This document shows, one piece after another, positions 12,801 through 52,511 of a stretch of DNA of 64,000 bases (the stretch's first letter is position 1; each line of letters begins with the position of its first letter). The position numbers and the translations under genes are program-made. The notes under the pieces were generated by a model. The model was not told the origin of the DNA. It saw only the letters and a program-made list of their open reading frames with translations, and made no database searches. Origin of the DNA: an uncultured Trueperaceae bacterium (GTDB lineage: Bacteria > Deinococcota > Deinococci > Deinococcales > Trueperaceae); NCBI GenBank assembly GCA_963815215.1, contig CAWFFU010000011.1:608001-672000 (forward strand), read 5' to 3'.

Positions 12801-12804
<4 letters not shown>
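11761..12804 (-). CDS. tdh: L-threonine 3-dehydrogenase
   Basis: [15 protein letters not shown], Zn cluster CGHCRNC...[15 protein letters not shown]; directly downstream of kbl. Confidence 0.95.
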
Positions 12805-13994
<1,190 letters not shown>

Positions 13995-14432
13995 GACTGC
14001 TCCTCCCGGCATGGGGCCAGGCGAGGCGCACGCCCCCGCTCTCGCGCAGGATCCCCTTTCCACGCTACCGCGCCACCCGGCGCTGCGCGCGAGAACGCCC
14101 CATCCGTTGCGTCAGGCAACCACGGAGTCATCGACCCCAGCCACGATCCGGCCGGCCGCCGGCCGGGCCCGCCCACGACCCTGGTGTGACGCGAGAGAGC
14201 CCGTCAGGCACGTCTCATGCTACCGTCGTGGTCAGCGATACGAAGCGCCGAACCGATCGGTCGCGCCCTTACTCGTTCCCGTTCCATCTTCATGGCCGAA
14301 GCACGCACACGGCGTTCGATCGCGATCTCCGGTTCGTCGCCCGCGAGCCGCATCGTGGCGTAGCTGCACCCCGCCGCTGAACCCCACCACGCTGCCGCCC
14401 CCGGACCCGAACTCCGAAGCGAGGGGCCGTAC

Positions 14433-15721: not shown

Positions 15722-18145
15722 TCACTCGCCGTACGGCACCCAGATGTTCTTCACGTGCGTCGCGCGCCGCAGGTACTCTCGGCCCTCGCCCTGCTCGGGA
15801 TCGAACCAATCCCGCCTCTTGCCGGAGTTGACCCAGGTGGCCTTGAGGTTGTCGGCGCTCTCACGCTCCACCGCCGTCGACCCGTCGGCCGAGCCCACGT
15901 ACCACATCGCCGCCACGTCGGCGTGCTTCGCGAGCACCGCCGCGAGCTCGTCACGATCGCCGGTGACGATGTTGAGGGCCCCGGCGGGGAGATCGCTCGT
16001 GTCCATCACCTGATAGAAGTCGGTGGCGGCCAGCGGCCAGCGCGACGACGGGACCGCCACGACGCGGTTGCCCATCGCCAGCGACGGGGCCACGAGCGAC
16101 ACGAACGCCAGCAGTGGAGCCTCGTCGGGACACGCCACCGCCATCACGCCCCACGGCTCGGGCATGGCGAGCGTCACGTTGCGCAGCGGCGTGGCGTGTA
16201 CGGCACCGTCGTACTTATCGGCATGGGCGGCGTACGTGAACAGCCGCTGCACGCTCGCCGCGACCTCCCGCTCGGCGTCGGCCTTGCGGGCGCCGGTCAT
16301 CGCCCGCAGCCGGGCGGCGAACTCGGCGCCGCGCGCCTCCAGGTTCTCGGCCAGGTAGTACAGAACCTGCGCCCGGTTGTGCGCCGTCGCCTTGGTCCAG
16401 GCCGTCCCCTTGCGTGCCGCCTCGACGGCGTTGCGCACGTCCTTGCGGTTGCCGAGCGGGGCCTCGCCCAGGTGCGCGCCGTCGGCGCCGAGCACCGGGT
16501 AGCTGTAGGCCCCGTCGGGCCGGGTCTGCTTGCCGCCGATGTAGAGCTTGGCGGTACGGTCGATCGCACCCTCCCCGAGCGGCGCCCCCTCGCCCAGCGC
16601 GGCCCCGTCGGGGACGCCGCTCGGCGCTTCTCGGTAGGGCTCGAGCCGCGCCTCCCAGCTAGGCTTGAGGTACTCGTACATCCCCTCGCGCCCGCCCTCG
16701 CGCCCGTAGCCCGACTCGCGGTAGCCGCCGAAGCCGCTGGCCGCGTCGAAGACGTTGGTGCAGTTCACCCACACCACCCCGGCCGCCAGCTTGGGCGCGA
16801 CGTCGAGCGCCAGGTTGACGTTCTCCGTCCACACGCTCGCCGCCAGCCCGTAGCGGGTGTTGTTGGCCAGCTCCACGGCCTCGGCCGGCGTGCGGAAGGT
16901 CATGCTCACGATGACGGGGCCGAAGATCTCCTCCTGCGCTGCGGCCGACGAGGGTGCCACCTCGCTGAACAGCGTCGGTGGGAAGTACAGGCCACCGCCG
17001 TTGGAGACCTCCGCGGCCCAGGAGGGCTGATAGCAGCGTCCGCCCTCGGCCTTGCACTGCTCCACCAGCCGGGTGATCTTGTCGAGCTGCACCGGCGCGA
17101 TGATGGCGCCGATGTCCATGGCCTTGTCCAGCGACGGCCCCTCGCGGAGCGTCTCCATGCGGGCGCGCAGCTTCTCCTCCACGGCCGCGGCCACGCTCTC
17201 CTGCACCAGCAGCCGGCTACCGGCGCAGCACACCTCGCCCTGGTTGAACCAGATGGCGTCGACCACACCCTCCACCGCGCTGTCCAGATCGGCGTCGTCG
17301 AACACGATGAAGGGGCTCTTGCCGCCCAGCTCCAGCGACAGCTTCAACCCGCGACCGGCCGTCGCCTGCCGGATGATGCGCCCCACCTCGGTGGAGCCGG
17401 TGAACGCCACCTTCGCCAGGCCCTCGTGCGCCACCAGCGCCGCGCCGGTGCGGCCGTCGCCCGTCACCACGTTGAGCACACCTTCGGGCAGCCCCGCCTC
17501 GGCGGCCATCTCCGCGAAGGCGAGCGCCGTGAGCGGCGTGAACTCGGCCGGCTTGAGCACCACCGTATTGCCCGCCGCCAGCGCCGGCGCCACCTTCCAC
17601 GCCAGCATCAGCAGCGGGAAGTTCCAGGGGATGATCTGACCGCACACGCCGACCGGCTCGTAGCCGGCGAACTCGGAGTCGCGGAGCTGCGCCCAGCCGG
17701 CGTGGTGGTAGAAGTGGCGCGCCACCAGGGGGATGTCGATGTCGCGCGTCTCGCGGATGGTCTTGCCGTTGTCGAGCGCTTCCAGCACCGCCAGCAGGCG
17801 CGCGTGCTTCTGCACGTGGCGCGCCAGCGCGTACAGGTGCCGAGAGCGCGCGAAGGGCGTCAGCGCCTGCCACGCCGGCAGCGCCTCCTGCGCCGCACGC
17901 ACGGCGGCGTCGACGTCCGCTGCGCCGCCCTGCGCCACCTGCGCCAGCTCGGCGCCGTCGCCGGGGTGCGTCGTCGCGAAGCGCGCGCCGTCGACGGGAT
18001 CGACGAAGCGCCCGCCGACGAAGTGGCCGAAGCTGCGCTCGTGGCGCTCTAGCCAGGCCTGCGCCAGCTCCGCGCTCTCCGGCGCCGGACCGTACTCCAT
18101 GCTCTCGAAGATCGCCTTGACCGACGGTGTCGCGGTGCTGCTCAT
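15722..18145 (-). CDS. Two-module aldehyde dehydrogenase (ALDH16-like, 807 aa)
   Basis: Complete ALDH domain (IPWNFP, FTGST, ELGGKS, NQGEVCCAG, EEIFGP) plus a second truncated Rossmann module ending KNIWVPYGE. Confidence 0.9.
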   Translation of the reverse strand: MSSTATPSVKAIFESMEYGPAPESAELAQAWLERHERSFGHFVGGRFVDPVDGARFATTHPGDGAELAQVAQGGAADVDAAVRAAQEALPAWQALTPFARSRHLYALARHVQKHARLLAVLEALDNGKTIRETRDIDIPLVARHFYHHAGWAQLRDSEFAGYEPVGVCGQIIPWNFPLLMLAWKVAPALAAGNTVVLKPAEFTPLTALAFAEMAAEAGLPEGVLNVVTGDGRTGAALVAHEGLAKVAFTGSTEVGRIIRQATAGRGLKLSLELGGKSPFIVFDDADLDSAVEGVVDAIWFNQGEVCCAGSRLLVQESVAAAVEEKLRARMETLREGPSLDKAMDIGAIIAPVQLDKITRLVEQCKAEGGRCYQPSWAAEVSNGGGLYFPPTLFSEVAPSSAAAQEEIFGPVIVSMTFRTPAEAVELANNTRYGLAASVWTENVNLALDVAPKLAAGVVWVNCTNVFDAASGFGGYRESGYGREGGREGMYEYLKPSWEARLEPYREAPSGVPDGAALGEGAPLGEGAIDRTAKLYIGGKQTRPDGAYSYPVLGADGAHLGEAPLGNRKDVRNAVEAARKGTAWTKATAHNRAQVLYYLAENLEARGAEFAARLRAMTGARKADAEREVAASVQRLFTYAAHADKYDGAVHATPLRNVTLAMPEPWGVMAVACPDEAPLLAFVSLVAPSLAMGNRVVAVPSSRWPLAATDFYQVMDTSDLPAGALNIVTGDRDELAAVLAKHADVAAMWYVGSADGSTAVERESADNLKATWVNSGKRRDWFDPEQGEGREYLRRATHVKNIWVPYGE

Positions 18146-18699
18146 GCGCTACGCTCCTGACGCTGCCATTCGCTGCGAAGCAGGCCGAACACCTCCAGGT
18201 CGGCGGGTTCGCCGCCGCCGGCCGGGTGCACCGCGCGCAGCGTGCCCTCGTGTCGGAACCCCAGCCGCTCGGCGACCCGGCGGCTGGGGAGGTTGTCCGG
18301 CTGGCATCGGATCTCCACCCGGTTGAGGCCGTACTCCTCGAACATGACCCGGGTGAGGCCGGCCACCGCTCGGGTGACGATGCCGCGACCGCTGGCGCGG
18401 CGCGCGATCCAGTAGCCGAACTCGGTGCGCCCCACCACGCGGTCGAGGTAGTGCACGCCGAGCATGCCCACCAGCTCGCCGTCCAGCCATAGCCCCGTCT
18501 CGAAACCGTTGCCGCGGGAGAACTTCTCCAGCGCCCCCCGCAGGAAGGCCCGCACCGCGGACTCGTCGGTGGTGAGCGCCCACGGCAGGAAATGGCCCAG
18601 GTGCTCGCGGTTCTCCGCCACCAGGGCCGCCAGCAGGGGCGCGTGGCGCTCCTCGAGCAACGCCAGGGCGAGCGAATCGTCGAGCGGTAGACGGAACAT
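18142..18699 (-). CDS. GNAT acetyltransferase, RimL/RimJ family
   Basis: ENREHL..FLPW, EFGYWI, GRGIVT, NLPSRRVAERLGF..EG. Confidence 0.85.
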   Translation of the reverse strand: MFRLPLDDSLALALLEERHAPLLAALVAENREHLGHFLPWALTTDESAVRAFLRGALEKFSRGNGFETGLWLDGELVGMLGVHYLDRVVGRTEFGYWIARRASGRGIVTRAVAGLTRVMFEEYGLNRVEIRCQPDNLPSRRVAERLGFRHEGTLRAVHPAGGGEPADLEVFGLLRSEWQRQERSA

Positions 18700-19691
18700 C
18701 AGCCCACCGGGTGCCGGAAGCCGGCGGAGTAGCGGCCCGTGACGCCGTGCTCGAGCTGCCGCTCGATGTCGGCCAGCAGCGAGCTCGCTCCGATGCGGAA
18801 CAGGTCGGGCTCGAGCCAGCGCCGCCCCAGCTCCTCGCGCATCAACGCCAGCCACACCAGCACGTCCTTGGCGGTACGCATGCCCCCGGCCGGCTTGAAC
18901 CCCACGGCCACGCCGGTGCGCTCGTAGTATGCGCGGATGGCGCGCGCCATCACCAGCCCGACCGGGAGCGTCGCGTTCACGCTCTCCTTGCCGGTCGAGG
19001 TCTTCACGAAATCGGCGCCCGCCATCATCGCCACCAGGCTGGCGCGATAGACGTTGCGCAGCGTGCCAAGCTCGCCGGTGGCAAGGATGGTCTTGAGGTG
19101 CGCCTCGCCGGCCGCCTCGCGGAAAGCACGCACCTCGTCGTACAGCGCCTGCCAGTCCCCGGTGAGGACGTGACGGCGCGAGATCACGATGTCGATCTCG
19201 GCAGCACCCGCACGCACGCTGCGGGCGATCTCATCGAGGCGCGTCTCGAAGGGCGAGAGCCCCGCCGGGAAGCCGGCCGACACCGCCGCCACCGGGATCC
19301 CGCTGCCGCGCAAGGCCTCCACCGCCACCGGAACCATGTCGTGGTAGACGCACACGGCCGCCGTGGTGAGACCGGCGTCCGCCATGCCCAGCGCCTCCAG
19401 CAGGTCGCGCCTCACCGGGTGCTCCGCCTTGGCGCACAGACGCCGCACCCGTCCAGGGGTGTCGTCGCCCGACAGGGTCGTCAGGTCGATCAGGGTGATC
19501 GCCCGCAGCAGCCACGCGAGCTGCCACTGCTTCTTGACGGTACGACGGCCGGGCAACGTAGCGGCGCGCCGCTCGACCGCGCTGCGATTGACGTGGGCGT
19601 CCCGGACCCAGTCGAGCGTCAACGCCATGCCGGGGTTGCGGTCGTCGATCCCCTGCTGCGCCCGGTCCGCGGTGTCGCTTCCGATGCTCAT
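18699..19691 (-). CDS. deoC: Deoxyribose-phosphate aldolase (long form)
   Basis: IDLTTLSGDDT, AAVCVY, GFPAG, EIDIVI, DFVKTSTGK, GFKPAGG, RIGASSLL. Confidence 0.93.
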   Translation of the reverse strand: MSIGSDTADRAQQGIDDRNPGMALTLDWVRDAHVNRSAVERRAATLPGRRTVKKQWQLAWLLRAITLIDLTTLSGDDTPGRVRRLCAKAEHPVRRDLLEALGMADAGLTTAAVCVYHDMVPVAVEALRGSGIPVAAVSAGFPAGLSPFETRLDEIARSVRAGAAEIDIVISRRHVLTGDWQALYDEVRAFREAAGEAHLKTILATGELGTLRNVYRASLVAMMAGADFVKTSTGKESVNATLPVGLVMARAIRAYYERTGVAVGFKPAGGMRTAKDVLVWLALMREELGRRWLEPDLFRIGASSLLADIERQLEHGVTGRYSAGFRHPVG

Positions 19692-19842
19692 AGTTCGCTC
19701 CCCACCCGCGTCCCGAGAACGCCGGGCAACTCCCAGCATACACGTCGTAGTCGGTCGAACCCGCGCTGGACCGGGATATGATGCGGTGGCCGCCGAGCGC
19801 GGTTGCGGCCTCCCGGCCGCCGTTCACCCGGAGGGAGTCTCC

Positions 19843-20841
19843 ATGCACCTGGCGCGGTTCCCGCGACGCCGTTACACGCCCCAGCCCACGCCGATCGAGC
19901 CGCTCGACCGGCTCAGCGAACACCTGGGCGGCCCCAACCTGTTCATCAAGCGCGACGACCAGCTCGGGCTCACGGCCGGCGGCAACAAGACCCGCAAGCT
20001 CGAGTTCCTGGTCGCCGAGGCGCTGGCACAGGGCGCCGACACCCTCATCACCACCGGCGCCGTGCAGTCCAACCACTGCCGGCTGACCCTGGCCGCCGCC
20101 GTCCACGAGGGGTTGAAGTGCCGCCTGGTGCTGGAGGAGAGGGTACCGGGCAGCTACGACCCGGGCGCCAGCGGGAACAACTTCCTGTATCGCCTGCTGG
20201 GCGTCGAGTCCATCACCGTGGTCGAGGGCGGCACCGACCTGATGGCCGCCATGCGGCGCGAGGCCGAGACGCTCGACGCCGAGGGGCGCCGCGGCTACGT
20301 CATCCCCGGCGGCGGCTCCACTCCGCTGGGCGCACTGGGGTACGTGGCCTGCGCCGAGGAGCTGCTGTCGCAGACCTTCGACATGGGCTTGCGGCTCGAC
20401 CACATCGTGAGCGCCAGCGGCAGCGGCGGAACGCACGCCGGCCTGGTGGCGGGGGTCTGGGGCGCCAACGCCAACATCCCCATCACCGGCATCAGCGTGC
20501 GGGCACAGAAGGCGGCGCAGGAGGAGCGCATCCTGACGCTGGCGCGCCGCACCGCGGAGCTCGCCGGCGTGAATGTCGAGGTACCGCCCGAGTCGGTGAC
20601 CGTGCTCGACGACTACGTGGGGCCCGGCTACTCCCTGCCCACGGACGCCATGATCGAGGCCGTGAAGCTGTTCGCCTCGCTGGAGGGCATCCTGCTCGAT
20701 CCGGTCTACACCGGCAAGGCGGCCGCGGGGCTGATCGACCTGGTGCGGCGCGGCCGCTTCGAGCGTGACGACAACGTCCTGTTCCTGCACACCGGCGGCG
20801 CCCCCGCCCTCTACGCCTACCAGGACGTACTGCTGGGATGA
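19843..20841 (+). CDS. PLP-dependent D-cysteine desulfhydrase family protein, probable D-cysteate sulfo-lyase (CuyA-like)
   Basis: KRDD...GGNKTRKLEF, QSNHCR, PGGGS, DPVYTGK, LHTGG; followed by a racemase and an SlcC-like gene; TATGAT at 19777 and GGAG RBS. Confidence 0.85.
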   Translation: MHLARFPRRRYTPQPTPIEPLDRLSEHLGGPNLFIKRDDQLGLTAGGNKTRKLEFLVAEALAQGADTLITTGAVQSNHCRLTLAAAVHEGLKCRLVLEERVPGSYDPGASGNNFLYRLLGVESITVVEGGTDLMAAMRREAETLDAEGRRGYVIPGGGSTPLGALGYVACAEELLSQTFDMGLRLDHIVSASGSGGTHAGLVAGVWGANANIPITGISVRAQKAAQEERILTLARRTAELAGVNVEVPPESVTVLDDYVGPGYSLPTDAMIEAVKLFASLEGILLDPVYTGKAAAGLIDLVRRGRFERDDNVLFLHTGGAPALYAYQDVLLG

Positions 20842-21596
20842 ACGGCTCCCCCGACAGCGGGCGACGCCGGACGGTGGGGGTGCTCGGTGGACTGGGTCCC
20901 GAAGCCACCCTCGACTTCTTCGCCAAGGTGCTGCAGCGCACCCCCGCCGCGAGCGACCAGGAGCACCTGCACCTGCTGATCGACAACGACCCGTCGGTCC
21001 CCAACCGCAACGATGCGGTGGCGGGTCGAGGCCCCTCGCCGGCACCGCAGCTCGCCGCCATGGCGCGGCGCCTCGAGGGCGCCGGGGCCGACTTCCTGGT
21101 GATGGTCTGTAACGCCGCCCACGCCTTCCAGAGCGCGATCGTGGAGGCCGTCGACATACCCTTCGTCAGCATCGTCGAGGAGACGGTCGAGGCCACCCTG
21201 ACGCGCGCGCCGTCGGCACGCCGCGTCGGCGTCCTGGCGGCCGAGGGCGCCCTCGACGCCGGCCTGTACCAGCGCGCCTTCGCGGCGCGGGGGGTGACGG
21301 CGCTCGTGCCCGAGGGGGACGACCGGGCGCGGTTCATGGATGGGATGTACCGCATCAAGGCAGGCGACAAGGGCGAGGCGGTCCAGCGCGACATGCTCGG
21401 CCTGGCACGCGTCCTGCAGGGAGCCGGCGCCGAAGCGCTGGTGGCCGGCTGCACCGAGGTCCCGCTGGTGCTGACGCAGGCGGCGCTCGACGCCGCCGGG
21501 ACGGCGCTGCCGTTCGTCGCCTCGACCGACGCGCTGGTCGAGGCGACGGTGGCGCTGGCGCTGGGAGAGCGGGCCCTGCCGGGAACACGGCCGTGA
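20838..21596 (+). CDS. Asp/Glu racemase family protein, probable cysteate racemase (CuyB-like)
   Basis: GGLGPEAT and both catalytic cysteines (CNAAH, GCTEVP); ATGA-coupled to the lyase. Confidence 0.85.
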   Translation: MNGSPDSGRRRTVGVLGGLGPEATLDFFAKVLQRTPAASDQEHLHLLIDNDPSVPNRNDAVAGRGPSPAPQLAAMARRLEGAGADFLVMVCNAAHAFQSAIVEAVDIPFVSIVEETVEATLTRAPSARRVGVLAAEGALDAGLYQRAFAARGVTALVPEGDDRARFMDGMYRIKAGDKGEAVQRDMLGLARVLQGAGAEALVAGCTEVPLVLTQAALDAAGTALPFVASTDALVEATVALALGERALPGTRP

Positions 21597-22570
21597 GCCG
21601 CATCGCACACCGCAGCGCACACCGCATCGTGGTGGCGGAGTTCCTGCCGGAAGCGGCCCTGGCCCTGCTGCGCGAGGCCGGCGAGGTGGTCGGCGGGCCG
21701 GACCTGCACGCGCGCCGGCCCGAGCTGCTCGAGCTCCTCCACGACGCCGAGGCCCTGGTGGTGCGCAATCAGACGCGCGTCGACACGCATCTGCTCGAGG
21801 GCGCGCCGCGACTGCGCGTGGTCGGCCGGGTGGGCACCGGGCTCGACAACTTCGAGCTCGCCGCGCTACGCGAGCGCGGGGTGACCCTCACATACTCCCC
21901 GGGCGCCAACGCCGCCAGCGTGGCGGAGTACGTGATGGGAGCGGTGCTCACCGTCTACCGGCGCTTCGTGCCTGTGGCGGCCGCCGTGGCCGCCGGCGGT
22001 TGGGACCGCCAGGCCGCCACCGGACGCGAGTTGGTCGGCGGGGTGATGGGCATCGTGGGGCTGGGCGACATCGGCGCGCGCGTCGCTCGGCGGGCGCGCG
22101 CCTTCGGCATGACGGTCGTCGCCACCGATCCCTACCTGCACGAGGCCAGCCCTGCGGTGCAGGAGAACGGCGTCACGCTGCTCCCCCTCGAGGCGCTGCT
22201 CGAACGCTCGGACGTGGTCACGCTCCACTCACCGCTCTCCCCCGCCACCCGTCATCTGCTGGGCGAGGAGCAGCTGGCCCTCATGAGGCCCGGGTCCCTG
22301 CTCGTCAACACCGGTCGCGGCGGGTTGCTGGACGAACCGGCGCTGGCCCGCGCGCTGCGCCGCGGCCGGCCGGCCGCGGCCGTGCTCGACGTGCGCGATC
22401 CCGAGCCTCCGGGCGAGGACGACCCTCTGCGCGGGGCACCGAACCTGCTGGTGACACCCCACGTGGCGGGCGTCACCGAGCAGGCGCTCGAGCGCGGCGC
22501 CTGCCACGTGGCCCGCGACGTGGTCCGTGTCCTGTCGGGCCGACCGCCCGTCAGCGCCGTCCCTACCTAG
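21593..22570 (+). CDS. D-isomer-specific 2-hydroxyacid dehydrogenase, (S)-sulfolactate dehydrogenase SlcC-like
   Basis: IVVAEFL, ALVVRNQTRVD, GRVGTGLDN, GANAASVAEYV, GLGDIG, NTGRGG, TPHVAGVT; no ACT domain, unlike typical SerA. Confidence 0.8.
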   Translation: MSRIAHRSAHRIVVAEFLPEAALALLREAGEVVGGPDLHARRPELLELLHDAEALVVRNQTRVDTHLLEGAPRLRVVGRVGTGLDNFELAALRERGVTLTYSPGANAASVAEYVMGAVLTVYRRFVPVAAAVAAGGWDRQAATGRELVGGVMGIVGLGDIGARVARRARAFGMTVVATDPYLHEASPAVQENGVTLLPLEALLERSDVVTLHSPLSPATRHLLGEEQLALMRPGSLLVNTGRGGLLDEPALARALRRGRPAAAVLDVRDPEPPGEDDPLRGAPNLLVTPHVAGVTEQALERGACHVARDVVRVLSGRPPVSAVPT

Positions 22571-22651
22571 CCGGGCGCGCCGCGCTCCGCGGGTGCCCTC
22601 CGGGCGCGTCTCCCATGATTCTCAGCGCTTCCGGGCCCAGTTCTCCCCGTC

Positions 22652-22704
22652 ATGGACGCATTGCGTCCATTTCATTGACTTGCATGACGCAAAACTCCTA
22701 TGAT
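22652..22704 (+). promoter_or_regulatory. Sigma70-type promoter with upstream inverted repeat
   Basis: TTGACT(22675-22680)-N18-TATGAT(22699-22704); perfect 9-1-9 repeat ATGGACGCA-T-TGCGTCCAT at 22652-22670. Confidence 0.65.
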
Positions 22705-22769
22705 GTGAGGCGCCTGAAAAGTCATGCACACGGGAGGATGGGCCTTCGCGCAAGCGGGTCCGGCCTTGG

Positions 22770-23288
22770 ATGAGAATAGGGACGTATCACCAGCTCGACC
22801 GCATCGACCAGCAGATCGTCGATCTGCTGCGCACGGACGGACGCATGCCCTACCGCGAGATCGCCCGCCGCCTGTCGGTCTCCGAGTCGATGGTGCGCAA
22901 GCGCGCCGGCAAGCTCCTGGAGTCCGGTTGGATGCGGATCCTCGCCATCAGCGACCCCCTCAAGCTAGGGGTCCCTATCGTTGCCACCACCTACGCCAGC
23001 GTCAGTCCGAACGTGCTGGAGGAGGTGACCGACGCACTGGCCCGCAATGAGGCGGTCCGCTACCTGGCCATCGGCGTAGGCAGCCGCAACCTGGTCGTCG
23101 AGTCGCTCCACGCCTCGGTCGAGGACGTGCACGCCTTCATCCAGAACGAGTTGGGAAGGGAGGGAGTCTACGAGAGCGAGACCATCCACGTGGTGAAGAT
23201 CAAGAAGAGCGTATGGGACTGGCCCATGCCGACCGAGTCCGACGACAGCGCAACGACCCCGAATCCGGAACGGAGAGACGACACATGA
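22770..23288 (+). CDS. Lrp/AsnC-family transcriptional regulator
   Basis: LDRIDQQIVDLLRTDGRMPYREIARRLSVSESMVRKR HTH followed by a RAM-like domain. Confidence 0.9.
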   Translation: MRIGTYHQLDRIDQQIVDLLRTDGRMPYREIARRLSVSESMVRKRAGKLLESGWMRILAISDPLKLGVPIVATTYASVSPNVLEEVTDALARNEAVRYLAIGVGSRNLVVESLHASVEDVHAFIQNELGREGVYESETIHVVKIKKSVWDWPMPTESDDSATTPNPERRDDT

Positions 23289-24790
23289 AACGCTTGACCC
23301 TGACCCTCGGCCTGCTCGCGATGCTGGCCGCCGCCGGCATGGGCTTCGCCCAGAAGAGCGGTGGCACCCTGATCGCAGCCTGGGCCCAAGACCCGGTGAG
23401 CCTGGACCCGCAGGTCACCAGCGCCTACTCGAGCTTCCAGGTCCTGGAGAACGTGCTCGACACCCTGGTGGCGCTCGATCAGCAGGACAAGATCGTGCCG
23501 TCGCTGGCCACCAGCTGGGAGTCCTCGGCCGACGGCCTCACCTGGACCTTCCATCTGCGCCACGACGTCAAGTTCAGCAACGGCCGTCCGATGACGGCGC
23601 AGGACGTCGTCTACACCTACGACCGCATGCTCGACCCCAAGACCGGCTCCGGCAACGCCTACCTGCTGGCCGGCGTCGAGAAGGTCACGGCGCCCGACGA
23701 CTACACCGTGCAGTTCCAGCTCAAGGCGCCCAATGTCGCCCTGCTCGGCCATCTTGCGGTCAACAAGTCCGTCGGCATCATCGCCAAGGAGTCGGTCCAG
23801 AACGGCACCATCAAGACCCAGCCGATCGGCACCGGCCCGTTCATGATCTCCGACTTCGAACCGGGCAACAAGGTCGTGCTGAAGAAGAATCCCTACTACT
23901 GGAAGCCGGGCCTGCCCTACCTCGACGAGGTCGACATCAAGATCATCACCGACGAGTCGGTGCGGCAGACGGGCCTGCTCGCCGGTGACATCGACTGGGC
24001 CATCAGTGTGCCGCCGCAGAGCCTGGACCAGCTCCAGAACGCACAGGGCGTGGTAGTGGACAAGACCACGGCGGGCGCGTACTGGTATATCGGCGTCAAC
24101 CTCAACAACCAGTACCTCAAGAACCCCAAGGTCCGCGAGGCCATCAACTACGCCATCAACCGCAAGGACATCACCACCGCGATGACGTTCGGCACGGGCG
24201 AGCCCACCCAGGACCCCATCCCGTCGTCGAGCGCCTGGGCCTACAACTATGCCCCCTACAGCTACGACCCCGGCAAGGCCAAGCAGTTGCTGGCCGACGC
24301 CGGCTACCCCAACGGCTTCCGCATGATGATCATGCCCACCACGCAGTACCCGGAGTCGGTCCGTGGCGCCCAGGTGATCCAGCAGAATCTCGGCCAGATC
24401 GGCATCAAGGTGACCATCAAGACGCTGGAGTGGGCGCAGTGGCTGCAGGAGGAAGGCAAGGGCAACTACGACACCTACGTGTGCTCGTGGAACGGCCTCG
24501 TCGACCCCGACGACTACTTCTACGCGCAGCAGAAGACCGGCGAGGTCTTCAACTTCACGGGCTACAGCAACACCAAGGTCGATCAGCTGCTCTCCGAGGG
24601 CCGCAAGACGCAGGGCTTCGACCAGCGCAAGGCGATCTACCAGCAGGTCAACAAGATGGTGGTGGACGACGCTCCGTACATCTACATGTACAACCCCGCC
24701 AACATCAACGCCTACCGCTCCTACGTCAAGGGCTACGCTGCCCGCCCCGACCAGGCGGTGAACTTCACCCAGACCTGGCTCGACAAGTGA
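23285..24790 (+). CDS. Dpp/Opp-family ABC substrate-binding protein
   Basis: Signal peptide, GGTL, SLDP, PSLATSW, IGTGPF, VREAINYAINR. Confidence 0.9.
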   Translation: MKRLTLTLGLLAMLAAAGMGFAQKSGGTLIAAWAQDPVSLDPQVTSAYSSFQVLENVLDTLVALDQQDKIVPSLATSWESSADGLTWTFHLRHDVKFSNGRPMTAQDVVYTYDRMLDPKTGSGNAYLLAGVEKVTAPDDYTVQFQLKAPNVALLGHLAVNKSVGIIAKESVQNGTIKTQPIGTGPFMISDFEPGNKVVLKKNPYYWKPGLPYLDEVDIKIITDESVRQTGLLAGDIDWAISVPPQSLDQLQNAQGVVVDKTTAGAYWYIGVNLNNQYLKNPKVREAINYAINRKDITTAMTFGTGEPTQDPIPSSSAWAYNYAPYSYDPGKAKQLLADAGYPNGFRMMIMPTTQYPESVRGAQVIQQNLGQIGIKVTIKTLEWAQWLQEEGKGNYDTYVCSWNGLVDPDDYFYAQQKTGEVFNFTGYSNTKVDQLLSEGRKTQGFDQRKAIYQQVNKMVVDDAPYIYMYNPANINAYRSYVKGYAARPDQAVNFTQTWLDK

Positions 24791-24825
24791 GCGCGGCTCG
24801 CTGAGCCCCGTTCCACGAGCTCCGA

Positions 24826-24853
24826 GCGGGAGGCGGCGCGGGCCGCCTCCCGC
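24826..24853 (+). terminator. Stem-loop after the SBP gene
   Basis: 12-bp perfect stem GCGGGAGGCGGC-GCGG-GCCGCCTCCCGC. Confidence 0.5.
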
Positions 24854-24892
24854 ATCCCTTCGGGTTTCCGTTATCTTGTCTTCGAGGTACCT

Positions 24893-25843
24893 GTGAGCCT
24901 TCGCTATCTTCTGCAACGGTTGGGCACGTTGCTGCTGGTGCTGTTCGGGGTGTCGATCCTGACCTTCTCGATCATCCCGCTGGTGCCGGGCAGCCCGGCC
25001 CGCGTCACACTGGGCGTGCAGGCCACCGACGCGTCGGTGGCAGCGCTCGAGCACAGCATGGGCCTCGACCGCCCGCTCCCCGCCCAGTACTGGAGTTGGG
25101 TCACCGGAATCGTGCTGCACGGCGACTTCGGAAAGAGCTTGATCAGCGGCAAGCCGATCACGGAGCAGGTGCGCCACCGCCTGCCGGCCACCCTGATCCT
25201 GGCCTTCACCGCGCTCCTGATCGGCCTGCTCATCGCCGTCCCCAGCGGCATCGTCTCGGCCCTACGGCCCGGCAGCGCGCGCGACCTGGGGGTCTCCTTG
25301 ATGAGCCAGATCGGCGTGTCGATCCCGGACTTCTGGCTCGGTATCCTGCTCATCCTGCTCTTCGCCCAGGTCCTCCACTGGTTGCCCTCGAGCGGCTACG
25401 CCCCGCTCTCCGAAGGGCTGGGCGCCTATCTCAGGCACATCCTCCTGCCCGCCGCCACCGCCGGCGTCATCAGCGGCTCGATCATGGCGCGCTTCGTGCG
25501 CTCGGCCATGATGGAAGTGCTCGGCAACGACTACGTGCGGACGGCTCGAGCCAAGGGTCTGGACCCGCGCCGCGTCATCGGCAAGCACGTGCTCCGCAAC
25601 GCCGCCATCACCATCGTCACCATCGTCGGGCTGCAGATGGCGACGCTGCTGTCGTCGGTGGTGGTGGTGGAGATCATCTTCGCCTGGCCGGGCCTGGGCT
25701 CGATGGCCCTGACCGCCACCCTCCAGCGCGACTATCCCGTGCTACAGGCGTCGGTGCTGCTGTTCGCCACCTCCTTCGCGGTCATCAACCTGCTGACCGA
25801 CCTCTCCTACGTGCTGCTCGACCCGAGCGTGGAGTACGCATGA
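24893..25843 (+). CDS. Dpp/Opp-family ABC permease (DppB-like)
   Basis: GDFGKS, IPDFWLG, DYVRTARAKGL, EIIFAWPGLG, RDYPVLQ. Confidence 0.9.
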   Translation: MSLRYLLQRLGTLLLVLFGVSILTFSIIPLVPGSPARVTLGVQATDASVAALEHSMGLDRPLPAQYWSWVTGIVLHGDFGKSLISGKPITEQVRHRLPATLILAFTALLIGLLIAVPSGIVSALRPGSARDLGVSLMSQIGVSIPDFWLGILLILLFAQVLHWLPSSGYAPLSEGLGAYLRHILLPAATAGVISGSIMARFVRSAMMEVLGNDYVRTARAKGLDPRRVIGKHVLRNAAITIVTIVGLQMATLLSSVVVVEIIFAWPGLGSMALTATLQRDYPVLQASVLLFATSFAVINLLTDLSYVLLDPSVEYA

Positions 25844-25854
25844 GAGGTACACCA

Positions 25855-26745
25855 ATGAGCGACGCCGTCGTCGCCACCGCACCGGACGCCCTCGGCACCG
25901 AGGAGGCCACCGTCCGCCGCTCGCTGGTGAGGCGCGCCCTGCGCCACCCGCTGGTCGTCACCGGCAGCATCGTGGTGCTGGCGTTGGCCGTCGTCGCCGT
26001 GTTCGGCCACTGGCTCGCGCCCTTCGATCCGACCGCCATGGACTTCGCCGCGCGCTTCGCGCCGCCCTCGCTGGCACACCCCTTCGGCACCGATGATTTC
26101 GGTCGCGACGTCTTGTCACGCGTGCTCTACGGTGCGGCGGTGTCGTTCGAGGTGGCGTTCATCGCCGTCGGCATCTCCGGCACCGTGGGGGTGCTGCTCG
26201 GCCTGCTGGCCGGCTTCCTGGGGGGCTGGATCGACGAGCTGGTCATGCGCGTGATGGACATCCTGTTCGCGTTCCCCGCCGTCCTGCTGGCCATCACCGT
26301 GATGGCCATCCTGGGGCGCGGCGTGGGCAACGCCATGATCGCCATCGCCATCGTCTACATCCCCATCTTCGCGCGCGTCACGCGCGGGGCGGTCATCGGC
26401 GTGCGCGGTCGGGAGTTCGTGACCGCCGCCCGCGCCATGGGTCAGGGGCCGTGGCGGATCATGCTGAGGCACGTCCTTCCCAACGCGCTGGGGCCCATCA
26501 TCGTGCAGACCTCCCTGAGCCTCGCGTTCGCCATCCTGGCGGAAGCTGCGCTGTCGTTCTTCGGCCTCGGCACCCAACCGCCGGCGCCGAGCTGGGGACG
26601 CATGCTCTCCGAGGGACGCTCCTTCCTCCATCAGGCCCCGTGGATGGGCATCTTCCCGGGCCTGGCCATCATGGTGTCGGTACTCGGCTTCAACCTCCTC
26701 GGCGACGGCCTGCGCGACGTTCTCGATCCGCGCTCGAATCGTTGA
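25855..26745 (+). CDS. Dpp/Opp-family ABC permease (DppC-like); alternative start 25840
   Basis: HPFGTDDFGRD, QPPAPSWG, GDGLRDVLDPR. Confidence 0.9.
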   Translation: MSDAVVATAPDALGTEEATVRRSLVRRALRHPLVVTGSIVVLALAVVAVFGHWLAPFDPTAMDFAARFAPPSLAHPFGTDDFGRDVLSRVLYGAAVSFEVAFIAVGISGTVGVLLGLLAGFLGGWIDELVMRVMDILFAFPAVLLAITVMAILGRGVGNAMIAIAIVYIPIFARVTRGAVIGVRGREFVTAARAMGQGPWRIMLRHVLPNALGPIIVQTSLSLAFAILAEAALSFFGLGTQPPAPSWGRMLSEGRSFLHQAPWMGIFPGLAIMVSVLGFNLLGDGLRDVLDPRSNR

Positions 26746-26763
26746 GAGCGCCGCGGTGACGCC

Positions 26764-29052
26764 TTGAGCAACGTCGGGCCGCGCCCGCCGGCCGCGATCC
26801 TCGGCCTGCCGCGAATGCGCGCCGCGGTCTCGCTGCTGGCGGGCGCAGGGCTGCTGCTGGAGATCGCGCTCACGCGCATGCTGTCGCTGCTCTACTTCAG
26901 CCCGTTCGTCTACGTGCTGCTGGCGGTGGCGGTGCTCGGTTCGGGGTTGGGGGCCGCAGCCGCCACGCTCCTGCCACGGACGCGCCGGCGCTCCGGCGCA
27001 GCGCTGGCGGCGTTGGCCGGAGGCCTCGTCACCCCGCTGGTCGTGGTGCTGCTGCTCCAGGTCGCGACGACGCCCCTGCAGGGCCTGGCGCTGGCGCTGT
27101 GCGCCCTGCCGTTCGTCTTCCTGGGGCACGCGCTGGCGACCCTGTTCGCGTTGCGGAGCGCGGCTGCGCCGCGCCTGTACCTGAGCGACCTGGTGGGCGC
27201 CGGCGTCGGCGCACTCGCCTCCGTGGCGGGGCTCGACGCCCTCGGCGCCGTCGGCACGGTGCTGCTCGCCGGCCTGCTGGCGGCACTGGCGGGTTCGGTG
27301 CTGGCGCCGCGGCCGCTGCTCGGCGCGGCCTTGGTGGCGTCGGTCGCTTGCGGCGCGCTCCTGGCGGGGGAGCTCGCCAGCGGCTGGCCGCAGCCGCCGC
27401 TCGCCGCACTCGCCGCACCCAAGCCGCTGAGTCGCGAGCTGCGGAGCGGCGCGACACCGGTCGCACACGCCTGGGACGCGCTCGGGCGCAGCGACCTGGT
27501 GCGCCGACCCGACGGTAGCCTGTACCTCTATCTCGACGGAGGCGCCGGTTCGCTGGTGCCCGACACCTCCAGGCCGACCACCTACCTTCACGACGTCGGC
27601 GCCTACGCTTACGCCGTCCAGGAGCCGAAGAGCGTGTTCGTCGTCGGCCCGGGCGGGGGGCTCGACGTGGCGCTCGCCAAGGCCTTCAACGTCCCCTCGA
27701 TCACCGCCGTCGAGCTCAATGGCGCCGGCGTGCGGTTGGCCGAGCGCGCCTCGTCCTCCGGTCTGGTGGCGGGCGCCGCGGCCTACGCCGGTGTGGACCT
27801 CCACATCGACGAGGGCCGCAGCTTCCTGCGCCGCCGGGGCGGCCGGTACGACCTGATCCTGCTATCGCAGGTCGTCACCGACGCCGCCGAAGCGCGCTCG
27901 TACGCGCTGGTCGAGAACTCGGTGTACACGGTCGAGGCCTTCCGTGAGGACCTGGCCCACCTGACGTCCGGCGGCGCGCTGGCACTCAAGCTCTACGACG
28001 AGGTCACCCTGACGCGCGCGCTCACCACCGCCGTGACGGCACTCGCAGCGCGCGGCATGAGCCAGGCCGACGCCCTGCACCACACCCTGGCGGTGCTCGA
28101 CGCCCGTGGCAGCCGCCCGATCCCGCTACTCATGGTCTTCGACCATGCCCTCGGCCACGACGAGGCGCTCGCGTATGGGCGCCTGGCTCAGTCCGCGGGC
28201 CTACGGATCCTCTACCTGCCGGGCCTCGTGGAGAACCCGCCGCTCGATGCCCTCAGCGCAGGCCGCACCGATCTGGCCCACATCGAGGCGTCCAGCGGCG
28301 GCGTCGACATCGCTCCGACCTTCGATCGCCGCCCCTTCTTCTTCCAGTTCGAGCCCGGCCTGCCACGGCCGCTCGCGTCCCTGCTCTGGGGGCTGGCCGC
28401 GGTGGCGCTGGTCGGGGCGGGCCTCCTCGCGCTGCGTCAGCGGCGCCGGAGCGGGCCCGCCCGGCCTGCCCCGCTACTGTTCGCCTTCCTTGGGGCGGGC
28501 TTCATGCTGTTCGAAGTGGGCGCGCTGCAGCGCCTGCGGCTCTACCTCGGCCATCCCACCCTCACGCTGGCGGTGGGGCTGGCGGCCCTGCTGGTAGGCG
28601 CCGGGCTGGGCTCCGGCCTGGCCCCCCGCTTCGCCCGCAACGCGCGCCGGGAACCGGTCGCCATCGGCCTGGCCGCCGCCACGGTAGCGGGGGCGACCCT
28701 GGCCTGGAGCCTGCTCGTTCCGTTGTGGACGAACGCCACCCTGGCCTGGCCGACCGGCGCCCGAGCGACGCTGGCGGCGGCGTCGCTGCTGCTGGTCGCG
28801 CTCCCCATGGGCGTGCCGTTCCCGCTGGCGCTGCGGCTGGCGGGCCGGAGCGGTCCGGCCGAGGTCGCGTTGGGCTGGTCCGTCAACGGCGTGGCGGCCG
28901 TGGTGGGTAGTAGCGCAGCCACCGCCATCGCGGTGATGTGGGGCTTCCCCTACGTGCATGCGGCCGCCGCGGCGACCTACCTGCTGGCCGCGGGCGTGCC
29001 CCTCCTCATGGCGTCGAGCCGTCCGGCGTCGGCCGAAGCGCCACCACCGTAG
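26764..29052 (+). CDS. Membrane protein with central spermidine-synthase-like SAM-binding domain (start may be ATG 26815)
   Basis: N- and C-terminal TM bundles flank VVGPGGGLDV, AVELN, IDEGRSFL, YDLI and ENSVYTVEAF motifs. Confidence 0.75.
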   Translation: MSNVGPRPPAAILGLPRMRAAVSLLAGAGLLLEIALTRMLSLLYFSPFVYVLLAVAVLGSGLGAAAATLLPRTRRRSGAALAALAGGLVTPLVVVLLLQVATTPLQGLALALCALPFVFLGHALATLFALRSAAAPRLYLSDLVGAGVGALASVAGLDALGAVGTVLLAGLLAALAGSVLAPRPLLGAALVASVACGALLAGELASGWPQPPLAALAAPKPLSRELRSGATPVAHAWDALGRSDLVRRPDGSLYLYLDGGAGSLVPDTSRPTTYLHDVGAYAYAVQEPKSVFVVGPGGGLDVALAKAFNVPSITAVELNGAGVRLAERASSSGLVAGAAAYAGVDLHIDEGRSFLRRRGGRYDLILLSQVVTDAAEARSYALVENSVYTVEAFREDLAHLTSGGALALKLYDEVTLTRALTTAVTALAARGMSQADALHHTLAVLDARGSRPIPLLMVFDHALGHDEALAYGRLAQSAGLRILYLPGLVENPPLDALSAGRTDLAHIEASSGGVDIAPTFDRRPFFFQFEPGLPRPLASLLWGLAAVALVGAGLLALRQRRRSGPARPAPLLFAFLGAGFMLFEVGALQRLRLYLGHPTLTLAVGLAALLVGAGLGSGLAPRFARNARREPVAIGLAAATVAGATLAWSLLVPLWTNATLAWPTGARATLAAASLLLVALPMGVPFPLALRLAGRSGPAEVALGWSVNGVAAVVGSSAATAIAVMWGFPYVHAAAAATYLLAAGVPLLMASSRPASAEAPPP

Positions 29053-30100
29053 AGGCCTCCGCGAGCGAGCGCTCGACCGCCAGGCACAGGGCCACCGCCA
29101 CCCGCCCGTCCGCCCCGTCGGCCGGGACGGGCGTGCCCTCGGTCACGGCGCGGAGGAACGCCACGGTCTGACGCGGAAGGTCGAAGGCGTGCCCGCTGCG
29201 TTGCGGCACCGCCGCGCTGCGGATACCATCGCCGTCCTGCACCCACAGCGCCACCGTCGGTTCCTCGTCGGCGTCCCGGCGGCCGTCCCAACGCCCCCGC
29301 AGGGAGCCGTCGGCGGCGTTGAGATCGCAGTGCACGTGGTGCTCGAAGCCTGCGATGCTGCGCGTCACCATCGCCCGCGCACCGCTCTCGAAGGCGAGTC
29401 GCACGTCGAGGTTCTCGTACAGCCCCTCGCGGCCCGGGCGGCTCGTGGCCCACGCCTGCAGCTCGGTCACCTCGCCGAGGTACCAGCGGGCCAGGTCCAG
29501 ATAGTGGATGGGCTCCTCCAGGATGCTGCTGCCGAGCTTGACGGGATCCTGCTTCCAGCCCGACGAACCGGAGCGGTGCGGACGCCGGAACAGCCGCAGG
29601 TCGAGGTGGGTCGGCGGGCCCAGCCGCTCGGCTTCCTCGCGCAGCACCTCCAGCCAGCGGAACACGCGCATCTCGTGGCCCACGGCCAGCACGCGATCCG
29701 CACGCCCCGCCGCCGCCAGCATGCGGTCGCAATCCTCGATCGTGGTGGCCATGGGTTTCTCGACCAGCACGTGCTTGCCGGCATCCAGAGCGGCCACGGC
29801 ATGCTCAGCATGGAGGTAGTTGGGGCTGGCCACGATGACCGCGTCCATCTCGAAGGCCAGGAACGCCTCGATGTCGGTCGTGGCCGGCGTCCCCCATGCG
29901 TCCTGCAAGCGTCGGGCGCTGGCCGTGGTACGCACCAGCACCCCGGCCAGCGGTGTGCCCGTGCTCTCCAGCGCGCTGCGGTGGGCCGCCGCCCAGCGCC
30001 CCCCACCGATGATCCCCACCCGCACCGGAAGCGCCACGCCACCGCGCCGGCTCACACCGTGCCGGCTCACACCGTGCCGGCTCACACCGCGCTCGTTCAC
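29006..30100 (-). CDS. Gfo/Idh/MocA-family NAD(P) oxidoreductase (candidate NAD-dependent sulfoquinovosidase)
   Basis: VGIIGGG, SPNYLH, KHVLVEKPM, GHEMR, GSSILEEPIHYLDL; GTGA-coupled to the upstream gene. Confidence 0.8.
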   Translation of the reverse strand: MNERGVSRHGVSRHGVSRRGGVALPVRVGIIGGGRWAAAHRSALESTGTPLAGVLVRTTASARRLQDAWGTPATTDIEAFLAFEMDAVIVASPNYLHAEHAVAALDAGKHVLVEKPMATTIEDCDRMLAAAGRADRVLAVGHEMRVFRWLEVLREEAERLGPPTHLDLRLFRRPHRSGSSGWKQDPVKLGSSILEEPIHYLDLARWYLGEVTELQAWATSRPGREGLYENLDVRLAFESGARAMVTRSIAGFEHHVHCDLNAADGSLRGRWDGRRDADEEPTVALWVQDGDGIRSAAVPQRSGHAFDLPRQTVAFLRAVTEGTPVPADGADGRVAVALCLAVERSLAEASTVVALRPTPDGSTP

Positions 30101-30167
30101 ACCGCGCCCTCTCCGCGCGGGGCCGGGTCGCCGCGGACCTCGGCGCGGACCTCGGCGCGGACCTCTG
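30046..30167. repeat. Two short tandem-repeat arrays at the junction of the Gfo genes
   Basis: 15-bp GCCGGCTCACACCGT x3 (third ends in C) plus one degenerate copy (30046-30105); 12-bp CGCGGACCTCGG x3 (30132-30167, last imperfect). Confidence 0.85.
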
Positions 30168-32243: not shown

Positions 32244-32312
32244 GCTCGCACCTCCATCGTCTATCTTCACGCAGTCCACCTCGGTTCGTGGGTCGGGTTC
32301 ATCGGGCCGCCG

Positions 32313-34648: not shown

Positions 34649-34655
34649 GATTGGA

Positions 34656-36703: not shown

Positions 36704-36777
36704 GGAAGATAGGGGAGGCAAGATCGGGTGGGGCGCCGCGCGAACGCCCCACCCCTGGATCGACGCCTTCGCCGAGC

Positions 36778-38043: not shown

Positions 38044-38090
38044 GGATACCTCCGGAATCGTGTTGGGTGGTTGGCGAACGGACGGGTCGT

Positions 38091-39125: not shown

Positions 39126-39196
39126 GAATGACCGCCCGCCTCCCCGCCCCCGGGCGCATCGCGATGCGCGGCCAGAGGGCGATTCGATAGCTTCTA

Positions 39197-39242
39197 CGCA
39201 ACCGGTTGCGGCAACGGTAGCACAGCCCCAGGAGCACCGCAA
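39197..39242 (-). promoter_or_regulatory. Promoter and LacI-type operator of the sugar operon
   Basis: Minus strand TTGCGG(39242-39237)-N17-TACCGT(39219-39214) with an extended TG; perfect palindrome CGCAACCGGTTGCG (39197-39210) over the predicted TSS. Confidence 0.7.
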
Positions 39243-39269
39243 GAGTGCTTCCGCCAGGGTCTGCGGCCC

Positions 39270-44528: not shown

Positions 44529-44785
44529 CGTCCCGTCCCCCACCGTGGCTCGGACGCATTGATGACCCGCAGCGGGCCGCGCCGGTAAGGTTCATAGCAG
44601 CGGCGCCGTGCACGCCCGAGACTCAGGCGGCGTCGATCGTCCATTGTCCTCGCAGCCCGTCCCAGCCCTCGTGAAATCGCGTACCTGTCTCGTCTCGCCG
44701 CTTCTCGCCGGCACCGCGTGCGGTAGGCTGGACGTCCCCGCCCCCGTCTCGGGGTCGAGGCACCGCATCGATGGGAGCCCAAGCG

Positions 44786-52433: not shown

Positions 52434-52463
52434 TTGACGTCCCGCGAAGTTAGCGAATACCAT
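52434..52463 (+). promoter_or_regulatory. Putative sigma70 promoter of the TRAP permease genes
   Basis: TTGACG-N18-TACCAT upstream of AAGGAG RBS. Confidence 0.45.
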
Positions 52464-52511
52464 GCTGTCAGTCGACCACGCGACAACCGGGTCCTTCGAA
52501 GGAGCGACACG

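Follow-up and report, generated by a model that had tools for sequence, protein, structure and literature searches.

We analysed a 64,000-nucleotide (nt) window from an uncultured Trueperaceae bacterium (C11:608001–672000) and found in it a triplet of plus-strand genes, at 19843–22570, whose products are assigned as a D-cysteate sulfo-lyase (CuyA), a cysteate racemase (CuyB) and, probably, an (S)-sulfolactate dehydrogenase of the SlcC type. We read the three genes as one operon that desulfonates C3 sulfonates by a cysteate lyase route, fed mainly by an adjoining sugar cluster, and we consider this reading probable, if well short of certain. The window has a G+C content of 70.6%, its closest public relatives are Trueperaceae metagenome-assembled genomes (MAGs), and the host genome comprises 3.3 Mb in 14 contigs with an estimated completeness of 97%.

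The layout of the triplet is compact. Gene 1 (cuyA) spans 19843–20841, opening with an ATG at 19843 and closing with a TGA at 20839–20841 after 332 codons; gene 2 (cuyB, 252 residues) spans 20838–21596; and gene 3 (325 residues), the dehydrogenase gene, runs from a GTG start at 21593 to a TAG stop ending at 22570. The first junction is an ATGA overlap at 20838–20841 and the second a GTGA overlap at 21593–21596. Four-base overlaps are ordinary in operons and alone prove nothing, but this order of genes is met again in other Trueperaceae loci; the structure that we predict here is that of a single operon. The GTG of gene 3 is the earliest start codon past the preceding stop and lies 5′ of a conserved HRIVVAEF block, at which its relatives start to align, and a database entry (P0004) is identical to the 325-residue protein. 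A first-pass annotation, made from the letters of the window, had described these overlaps as joining a desulfhydrase-family pyridoxal 5′-phosphate (PLP) enzyme, a two-cysteine racemase and a D-2-hydroxyacid dehydrogenase that lacks an ACT domain, and this description is right in all details.

Curated models assign the first two genes as cuyA and cuyB. The product of gene 1, a PLP enzyme of fold type II that is encoded once in the genome, scores 534.4 bits against the CuyA model NF052482 (cut-off 450); its PALP domain covers residues 14–318, with the lysine-bearing N-terminal motif GGNKTRK at residue 46. The product of gene 2, a PLP-independent racemase, scores 263.1 bits against the CuyB model NF052483 (cut-off 190) and has an Asp_Glu_race domain at residues 16–236; its sole cysteines, Cys91 and Cys205, lie within the motifs VMVCNAAH and AGCTEV. 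With both proteins over these cut-offs, the earlier proposal that they form the cysteate pair known from Bilophila is borne out; a cuyA–cuyB cysteate unit of Bilophila wadsworthia was described in 2024 (PMC11193023). Gene 1 also passes TIGR01275, the D-cysteine desulfhydrase family (322.6 bits, cut-off 289.4), its best solved relative, 7ysk (382 bits), is named D-cysteine desulfhydrase, and characterised CuyA enzymes are partly active on D-cysteine (PMC11193023). On these grounds the pair could be a D-cysteine desulfhydrase and an aspartate/glutamate racemase that serve D-amino-acid use or detoxification and have no link to sulfonates. We give that explanation very little credence: all three D-cysteine desulfhydrase (DcyD) equivalogs score under their cut-offs (NF003030, 316.5 versus 429 bits; NF003029, 292.3 versus 610; NF003032, 286.4 versus 469), whereas the CuyA and CuyB equivalogs are passed, and the neighbouring genes are sulfonate-related. 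Both 1-aminocyclopropane-1-carboxylate deaminase models are likewise under cut-off (258.9 versus 392 bits).

Gene 3 is a probable SlcC-like (S)-sulfolactate dehydrogenase, a label that rests on context together with comparison among relatives. Pfam finds only the domains 2-Hacid_dh and 2-Hacid_dh_C in the protein and no ACT domain. In the alignment its GLGDIG, VATDP, NTGRGG, DPEPP and TPHVAG motifs line up with all relatives, and we take the GxGxxG nicotinamide adenine dinucleotide (NAD) site and the Arg, Glu and His catalytic residues to have the roles usual for the family. Relatives that are 42–51% identical to gene 3 lie in sulfolactate clusters with SuyAB, ComC, HpsN and tripartite tricarboxylate transporter (TTT) genes. 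Of the 53 loci retrieved with gene 3, eight have an Ldh_2 (ComC-type) gene, mostly directly after the 2-hydroxyacid dehydrogenase gene, and among these eight are loci with further sulfonate genes: HpsN and a SuyB-type lyase in L011, SuyB in L019 and TauE in L026. In the Halomonadaceae, a homologue 42–47% identical to gene 3 occurs in 16 of 151 sampled genomes and is accompanied by TctA and Ldh_2 in nine of ten short loci and in all five long loci, the latter being longer extracts of genomes that belong to the 16. SuyB is also present in three of the five, and two of the three wider regions scanned show the order suyA-suyB-tctC-tctA-(tctB)-dehydrogenase-Ldh_2. This gene order corresponds to the published gene set for (S)-sulfolactate degradation, namely SlcC, ComC and SuyAB (PMC11193023, PMC12814064), and is one of several lines that point to an SlcC-type enzyme.

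Comparison within the genome and across the family agrees with this assignment. The SlcC-context proteins match gene 3 best in the genome, at 190–248 bits, against at most 183 bits for its paralogues, among which is a full-length SerA of 548 residues (C3:918–919 kb). In a maximum-likelihood tree of 63 rows, the Trueperaceae proteins form a clade of nine rows (support 99/95) whose sister comprises the proteins of L008, L010, L011 and L023 (90/91). Each of the 21 SlcC-context rows in the alignment has a VRN(Q/R/G)(T/S) loop at the place of RS in the two SerA rows, and GR(L/V)G(V/T)GL(D/E) and (T/S)PH.AG.T are likewise common to the 21 rows; the Arg-Asn loop signature is an observation of this analysis and not a published rule. 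Many gene 3 homologues carry the automatic JGI name ‘(S)-sulfolactate dehydrogenase’. SlcC itself has been placed as a 2-hydroxyacid dehydrogenase within or sister to the SerA clade that refuses 3-phosphoglycerate (PMC6303947). Cluster context, reciprocal best hits, the loop motif and clade placement thus support the earlier suggestion that the third gene is SlcC-like.

In the route that we propose, the SlcC-like enzyme would oxidise (S)-3-sulfolactate with NAD+ to 3-sulfopyruvate, an aminotransferase encoded elsewhere would convert the latter to L-cysteate, CuyB would convert L-cysteate to D-cysteate, and CuyA would release pyruvate, ammonium and sulfite from D-cysteate. Imported cysteate would join the route at CuyB. 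Most (S)-sulfolactate would probably come from the adjoining minus-strand cluster at 29006–39269, which may import a sulfosugar through a SmoF-like ATP-binding cassette (ABC) system and, with its isomerase, kinase and class I aldolase, convert this sugar to dihydroxyacetone phosphate and sulfolactaldehyde. Context and homology are the basis on which we infer what the dehydrogenase acts on, that transamination and sulfolactaldehyde oxidation take place, and that the cluster handles a sulfosugar. Sulfoglycolysis yields the S enantiomer (PMC11382572, PMC13436972), in keeping with a D-specific dehydrogenase and with the lack of ComC in the genome.

The case for a sulfosugar is led by the binding protein of the sugar ABC importer, encoded on the minus strand at 36781–38097. 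Its best solved relative is SmoF, a sulfoquinovosyl glycerol-binding protein (7nbz/7ofy; 377 bits, E = 9.9e-112, full length), with a trehalose/maltose binding protein as runner-up at 257 bits; by this likeness to SmoF, the cluster is predicted to hold a sulfosugar importer. A permease with a BPD_transp_1 domain is encoded at 35582–36721, and a second sugar permease probably lies in 34660–35580. The enzymes follow on the same strand. The candidate sulfosugar isomerase (33245–34663), of the FucI/AraA family, has as its sole NCBIfam match the sulfoquinovose isomerase model NF048012 (SftI; 122 bits over the full length, cut-off 700), and no solved relative was found for it. The PfkB-family kinase (32313–33287), a candidate sulfofructose kinase, has the sulfofructose kinase YihV as its best solved relative (7ag6; 136.9 bits, E = 9.5e-39), with ribokinases at no more than 96 bits. 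The class I DeoC/LacD-type aldolase (31176–32312), a candidate sulfoketose-1-phosphate aldolase, scores 311.5 bits against PRK12858 (cut-off 184); among solved chains it matches 8tnf best (242 bits), followed by LacD (138 bits) and the YihT/sulfofructose phosphate aldolase (79 bits). A literature search on 8TNF found nothing relevant, and in the Atlas both the isomerase and the aldolase have generic family names only. Two Gfo/Idh/MocA oxidoreductases identified by Pfam, at about 29006–30100 and at 30097–31257, complete the minus-strand run, and the pair is kept in the three relatives described below. They match the chains 8qc2 and 8qc3, the former cited in the SqgA paper, weakly at 41–51 bits and under many other oxidoreductases, and we do not claim an SqgA-type role for them. 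At the head of the cluster stands a LacI-family regulator gene (38091–39269, minus strand; NCBIfam LacI matches, none over cut-off), which is kept at the same place in one of those relatives (L118).

The link between the triplet and the sugar cluster recurs in the family. The dehydrogenase gene lies at the end of the minus-strand sugar cluster in every Trueperaceae locus examined, and in L116–L118, which cover more of the records that L002, L003 and L001 were taken from, the series SmoF-permease-isomerase-kinase(-aldolase)-Gfo-Gfo runs straight into slcC-cuyB-cuyA. That the triplet lies directly against the sulfosugar-like cluster in three relatives suggests mineralisation of a sulfosugar by one organism. 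A SmoF-like protein is encoded in 53 of 128 Trueperaceae genomes and 21 of 36 genera (52 of 127 genomes without the unpublished genome G090, which the larger set includes). According to the CuyA and SmoF result tables, cuyA and a SmoF-like gene lie at most 20 kb apart on one contig in 13 genomes of seven genera, the other assemblies being mostly too fragmented to judge. We tentatively extend the proposal, with less confidence than we place in the operon: many Trueperaceae may carry a supercluster of about 17–24 kb that mineralises a sulfosugar fully in one cell, through SmoF uptake, a hybrid Embden–Meyerhof–Parnas (EMP) split and the SlcC, transaminase, CuyB and CuyA steps. The sugar could be sulfoquinovose or, because the aldolase is of the tagatose type, sulfofucose by way of sulfotagatose, and (S)-sulfolactaldehyde might be converted to (S)-sulfolactate by a neighbouring ALDH16-type enzyme. 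The importer and the EMP-type genes are not universally linked, as one locus makes clear (L115, G126:C9:1366001–1386000): there, cuyB-cuyA directly adjoins genes for a SmoF-like binding protein and two permeases, and within 20 kb there is no gene for an isomerase, a kinase or an aldolase. Upstream, the same locus has a ThuA-like and a Gfo gene.

The CuyA genes of the family show how constant each part of the operon is. CuyA is found over cut-off in 103 of the 128 Trueperaceae genomes (102 of 127 without G090). Among 29 other Trueperaceae CuyA loci, cuyB adjoins cuyA in 25 and the dehydrogenase gene follows cuyB in 10, several loci ending before a third gene; an Lrp/AsnC gene stands straight after cuyB in five and after cuyA in one more. 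The cuyA–cuyB pair is therefore the constant core, to which a dehydrogenase gene and an Lrp-type regulator gene are often added; this window has both (cuyA-cuyB-slcC-lrp). Within the set of 53 loci fetched with gene 3, the order cuyA-cuyB-dehydrogenase occurs in four (L001, L002, L003 and L012), all from Trueperaceae. One of these, L001, has a G+C content of 54%, versus 71% here, and its genes are spaced by gaps of a few bases, with no overlaps.

Several observations weigh against the proposed route. Gene 3 passes no curated NCBIfam equivalog, its best model there being phosphoglycerate dehydrogenase (264 bits, cut-off 454); the backbone of the tree does not separate one clade of all SlcC-context proteins from SerA; and our comparison rested on unnamed Halomonadaceae cluster proteins as stand-ins for the characterised SlcC of Chromohalobacter salexigens (SLCC_CHRSD). 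No aminotransferase gene is linked to the operon. In five CuyA loci the gene after cuyB is lrp and not slcC, and in L004–L007 and L009, all from Trueperaceae, the dehydrogenase gene stands by the sugar cluster without cuyAB, so that the triplet is one among several arrangements. As for the sugar cluster, both its isomerase and its aldolase are distant relatives of the known sulfoquinovose enzymes, the cluster contains no standard sulfolactaldehyde dehydrogenase gene, no sulfoquinovosidase was found in the genome, and 6.4 kb of other genes lie between slcC and the cluster in this window.

Some of these observations would be explained if CuyB and CuyA acted on imported L- or D-cysteate and the dehydrogenase served hydroxypyruvate or glycerate, D-lactate or 3-phosphoglycerate, its place being due to local synteny with the sugar cluster. 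The phosphoglycerate dehydrogenase match and the absence of a curated assignment would be expected in that case, as would the cuyA-cuyB-lrp loci that have no dehydrogenase gene (five of 29), the dehydrogenase genes that have no cuyAB and the peptide-type ABC importer encoded after the operon. We nevertheless regard this explanation as unlikely. The genome has a separate full-length SerA; gene 3 is the reciprocal best hit of SlcC-context proteins and shares their loop motif; the four-base overlap would put it in the cuyB transcript; and a locus from an Acidimicrobiia MAG (L047) shows the pairing with these sugar genes again, with an SlcC-like gene next to genes for the same type of aldolase, an isomerase like SftI (274 bits) and a Gfo protein. 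Directly upstream of this SlcC-like gene and aldolase/isomerase cluster, at L047:4725–5990, is a gene for a threonine-synthase-family PLP enzyme (PRK08197, 625 bits) with weak likeness to cysteate synthase, which could be another way of handling a C3 sulfonate.

Candidates for the remaining steps of the cysteate lyase route were sought in the rest of the genome. For the step from sulfopyruvate to cysteate, the first-pass annotation had suggested that a housekeeping aspartate aminotransferase is borrowed, which we treat as conjectural. The class I/II PLP gene at 12801–14063 was considered as a cysteate transaminase and rejected, being a glycine C-acetyltransferase (Kbl; 671 bits, cut-off 460); the genome has seven further strong Aminotran_1_2 matches in other places. 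The two glycoside hydrolase family 31 genes of the genome, both on other contigs, were rejected as sulfoquinovosidases: they score 150 and 103 bits on NF007746, far below its cut-off of 553, a model that we take to cover Escherichia coli YihQ. The genome also has seven TauE matches and two sulfite-oxidase-type molybdoenzymes. The first-pass annotation had held that the route works without SuyAB or Xsc, and here its interpretation divides. The identity of CuyA and CuyB, the SlcC-like third gene and the absence of Xsc all stand, the best Xsc score in the genome being 258.6 bits against a cut-off of 676. The absence of SuyAB does not, as a SuyB homologue lies on the same contig. This second sulfonate locus (C11:543000–552900, L064), about 62 kb upstream of the window, encodes a 384-residue GD_AH lyase that is 65% identical to SuyB of the Halomonadaceae suyAB-tctCAB-slcC-comC clusters. 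Alongside it are genes for a GntR regulator, a 2-hydroxyacid dehydrogenase 39% identical to gene 3, a 141-residue SAF-like protein, a Gfo protein, TctA and TctC, with a sulfonate-type (NitT/TauT-type) ABC importer encoded divergently. The clustering of SlcC with ComC and SuyAB is thus not the setting of gene 3: its partners are cuyB and cuyA, and the SuyB-like gene is 62 kb off, beside a different 2-hydroxyacid dehydrogenase.

The presence of this SuyB homologue with a TTT transporter raises a further alternative, in which the dehydrogenase works in the reductive direction and cysteate passes through sulfopyruvate to sulfolactate, either for excretion or for the SuyAB-like lyase. A route from cysteate through sulfopyruvate and sulfolactate to SuyAB is on record for Paracoccus pantotrophus (PMC11193023). 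Against it, a D-specific 2-hydroxyacid dehydrogenase would yield (S)-sulfolactate, whereas SuyAB takes the R form (PMC11382572, PMC13436972); no Ldh_2/ComC-type gene was found in the 97%-complete genome; and such a branch would compete with CuyA of the same operon. We therefore judge a reductive role distinctly improbable. The two lyases may instead divide the enantiomers, with SuyAB used for (R)-sulfolactate. Because a genome without ComC would be unable to invert the S form, this form would be left to SlcC, the transaminase, CuyB and CuyA.

For the oxidation of sulfolactaldehyde, the only nearby candidate is an ALDH16-type aldehyde dehydrogenase of 807 residues, encoded divergently from cuyA at 15722–18145 (minus strand), and its link to the pathway is uncertain. 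Between it and cuyA is a DeoC aldolase gene (18699–19739, minus strand; TIGR00126, 145.5 bits, cut-off 117.3). The ALDH16-type enzyme matches 6mvr at 960 bits over residues 8–806, a 767-residue chain that we take to be the Loktanella ALDH16; it keeps the catalytic cysteine (Cys306/307, in FNQGEVCCAGSR) and has a second, partial aldehyde dehydrogenase domain at its C terminus. We know of no physiological role for a bacterial ALDH16. The DeoC/ALDH16 side is divergent from cuyA in 13 of the 29 Trueperaceae CuyA loci, and both genes are found on the far side of slcC-cuyB-cuyA in L117 and L118; in the genomes G025 and G027 the ALDH16-type gene is unlinked to cuyA. The type occurs in 36 of 40 sampled Trueperaceae, in 17 of 57 genomes of a second family and in none of 92 of a third. 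A selenocysteine-containing ALDH16 was considered and rejected, as the TGA noted in three genomes stands ahead of residue 8 and is not part of the enzyme.

Downstream, the operon is followed by a spacer of 200 bases before an Lrp/AsnC gene. The spacer contains an AT-richer, putative intergenic control region (22652–22728, no strand assigned) with a perfect 9+9 palindrome, ATGGACGCA-T-TGCGTCCAT, at 22652–22670 and a second inverted repeat of 8 bases, TGCATGAC/GTCATGCA, which flanks a promoter-like site at 22675–22704. With these elements placed before lrp, the triplet looks like its own unit, and the palindrome region just upstream of the Lrp/AsnC gene is likely an operator. A shared operator with cuyA was rejected, as the palindrome has no second copy upstream of cuyA or anywhere in the window; no intrinsic terminator-like site was found within 19500–23400. 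The regulator itself (22770–23288, plus strand; HTH_AsnC-type) is a candidate regulator of the cuy genes. It is followed on the plus strand by parts of a peptide/opine-type ABC importer with SBP_bac_5, BPD_transp_1 and OppC_N domains: a family-5 binding protein (23213–24790) and permeases at 24893–25843 and about 25840–26745. No Walker A or LSGGQ motif of an ATPase for this system was found in 26701–30100. A tripartite ATP-independent periplasmic (TRAP) or TTT transporter at 22770–25843 was considered and rejected in favour of the Lrp regulator and the family-5 ABC system. These ABC parts are absent from this position in L001–L003; in the window and its near relative L012, the Lrp gene, the peptide-type ABC system and a 762-residue membrane protein lie between slcC and the sugar cluster. 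This Ala/Leu-rich membrane protein (26764–29052, plus strand) belongs to no Pfam family, has a central GxGxG stretch resembling an S-adenosylmethionine-binding site and is encoded after the two ABC permeases, where an ATPase gene would be expected.

On the other side of the sugar cluster, directly after the LacI gene, a minus-strand gene at 39270–44543 encodes a 1,757-residue signalling protein with a seven-transmembrane N-terminal region and GAF, PAS, GGDEF and EAL domains. Farther on are genes for a TRAP transporter (52434–55959; DctQ, DctM and a divergent DctP) and a phosphonate-type ABC importer (55997–59321).

Sulfoquinovose is produced at about 10 billion tons per year (PMC10755693), and its use is commonly divided between two tiers, in which sulfoglycolytic bacteria export sulfolactate or 2,3-dihydroxypropane-1-sulfonate and other bacteria desulfonate these products (PMC13436972). 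If our reading is true, a locus in which a sulfosugar importer and splitter are linked to SlcC, CuyB and CuyA would put both tiers in one organism, across the family, and would be the first sulfoglycolytic cluster wired to cysteate lyase instead of to C3-sulfonate export or SuyAB. It would handle the S enantiomer, (S)-sulfolactate, without the ComC/SuyAB pair, would give bacterial ALDH16 a first physiological role and would extend the known range of sulfonate mineralisers to Deinococcota of soil, sediment and salt marsh, the sample origins being a lead only. The operon is also a clean candidate for SlcC activity outside the Proteobacteria, and it narrows the search for the sulfopyruvate/cysteate aminotransferase. 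In the literature searched, which did not extend to the supplements of PMC11193023 and PMC12814064, where such neighbourhoods may be listed, we found no cuyA-cuyB-slcC operon and no sulfonate use by Trueperaceae.

The chemistry of the route is not new. A third sulfolactate route, which leads by way of sulfopyruvate and L-cysteate to CuyB and CuyA, has already been drawn, with its aminotransferase marked unknown (PMC11382572); what is new is that SlcC replaces SlcD, that the genes form a single operon and that the host belongs to this family. The ‘CuyA pathway’ of Roseovarius nubinhibens and Ruegeria pomeroyi has the same chemistry, and there too no gene has been assigned to the aminotransferase, but it uses SlcD where the window has a soluble SlcC-type 2-hydroxyacid dehydrogenase gene in start/stop overlap with cuyB and cuyA (PMC11382572). 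In R. pomeroyi, cuyB is apart from cuyA (PMC11193023), whereas the two are adjacent here, and the hosts are Alphaproteobacteria rather than Deinococcota. B. wadsworthia shares the adjacent genes for D-cysteate sulfo-lyase and cysteate racemase, yet its pair is accompanied by genes for an SDF transporter and RidA and by none for a dehydrogenase, and the organism uses sulfite as electron acceptor (PMC11193023); the neighbours here are a 2-hydroxyacid dehydrogenase and an Lrp-type regulator.

The SlcC/ComC/SuyAB system of C. salexigens is similar in having a 2-hydroxyacid dehydrogenase that lacks an ACT domain and lies near the SerA clade, as do the Halomonadaceae cluster proteins compared above. 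In that organism, ComC reportedly reduces sulfopyruvate to (R)-sulfolactate for SuyAB (Denger and Cook, 2010), whereas the present genome has no ComC and the partners of its SlcC-like gene are cuyB and cuyA. The sulfofucolytic-SuyAB system of Paracoccus wurundjeri, described in 2025, likewise joins sulfosugar cleavage to sulfolactate mineralisation through SlcC in one organism and locus (PMC12421959). It combines an Entner–Doudoroff-type sugar route with a SuyAB lyase (PMC12421959), in contrast to the candidate EMP-type genes and predicted CuyA of the Trueperaceae locus. Finally, the hpsN-cuyC-cuyA-cuyB cluster for D-cysteinolate, also from 2025, extends cuyA-cuyB by an upstream dehydrogenase that feeds cysteate (PMC12814064). 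There, the added enzymes are HpsN, of the histidinol dehydrogenase family, and the PLP racemase CuyC, and the substrate is cysteinolate (PMC12814064); neither hpsN nor cuyC is found in this window. Set beside these systems, the triplet appears to be a known pathway whose gene arrangement and host phylum are new.

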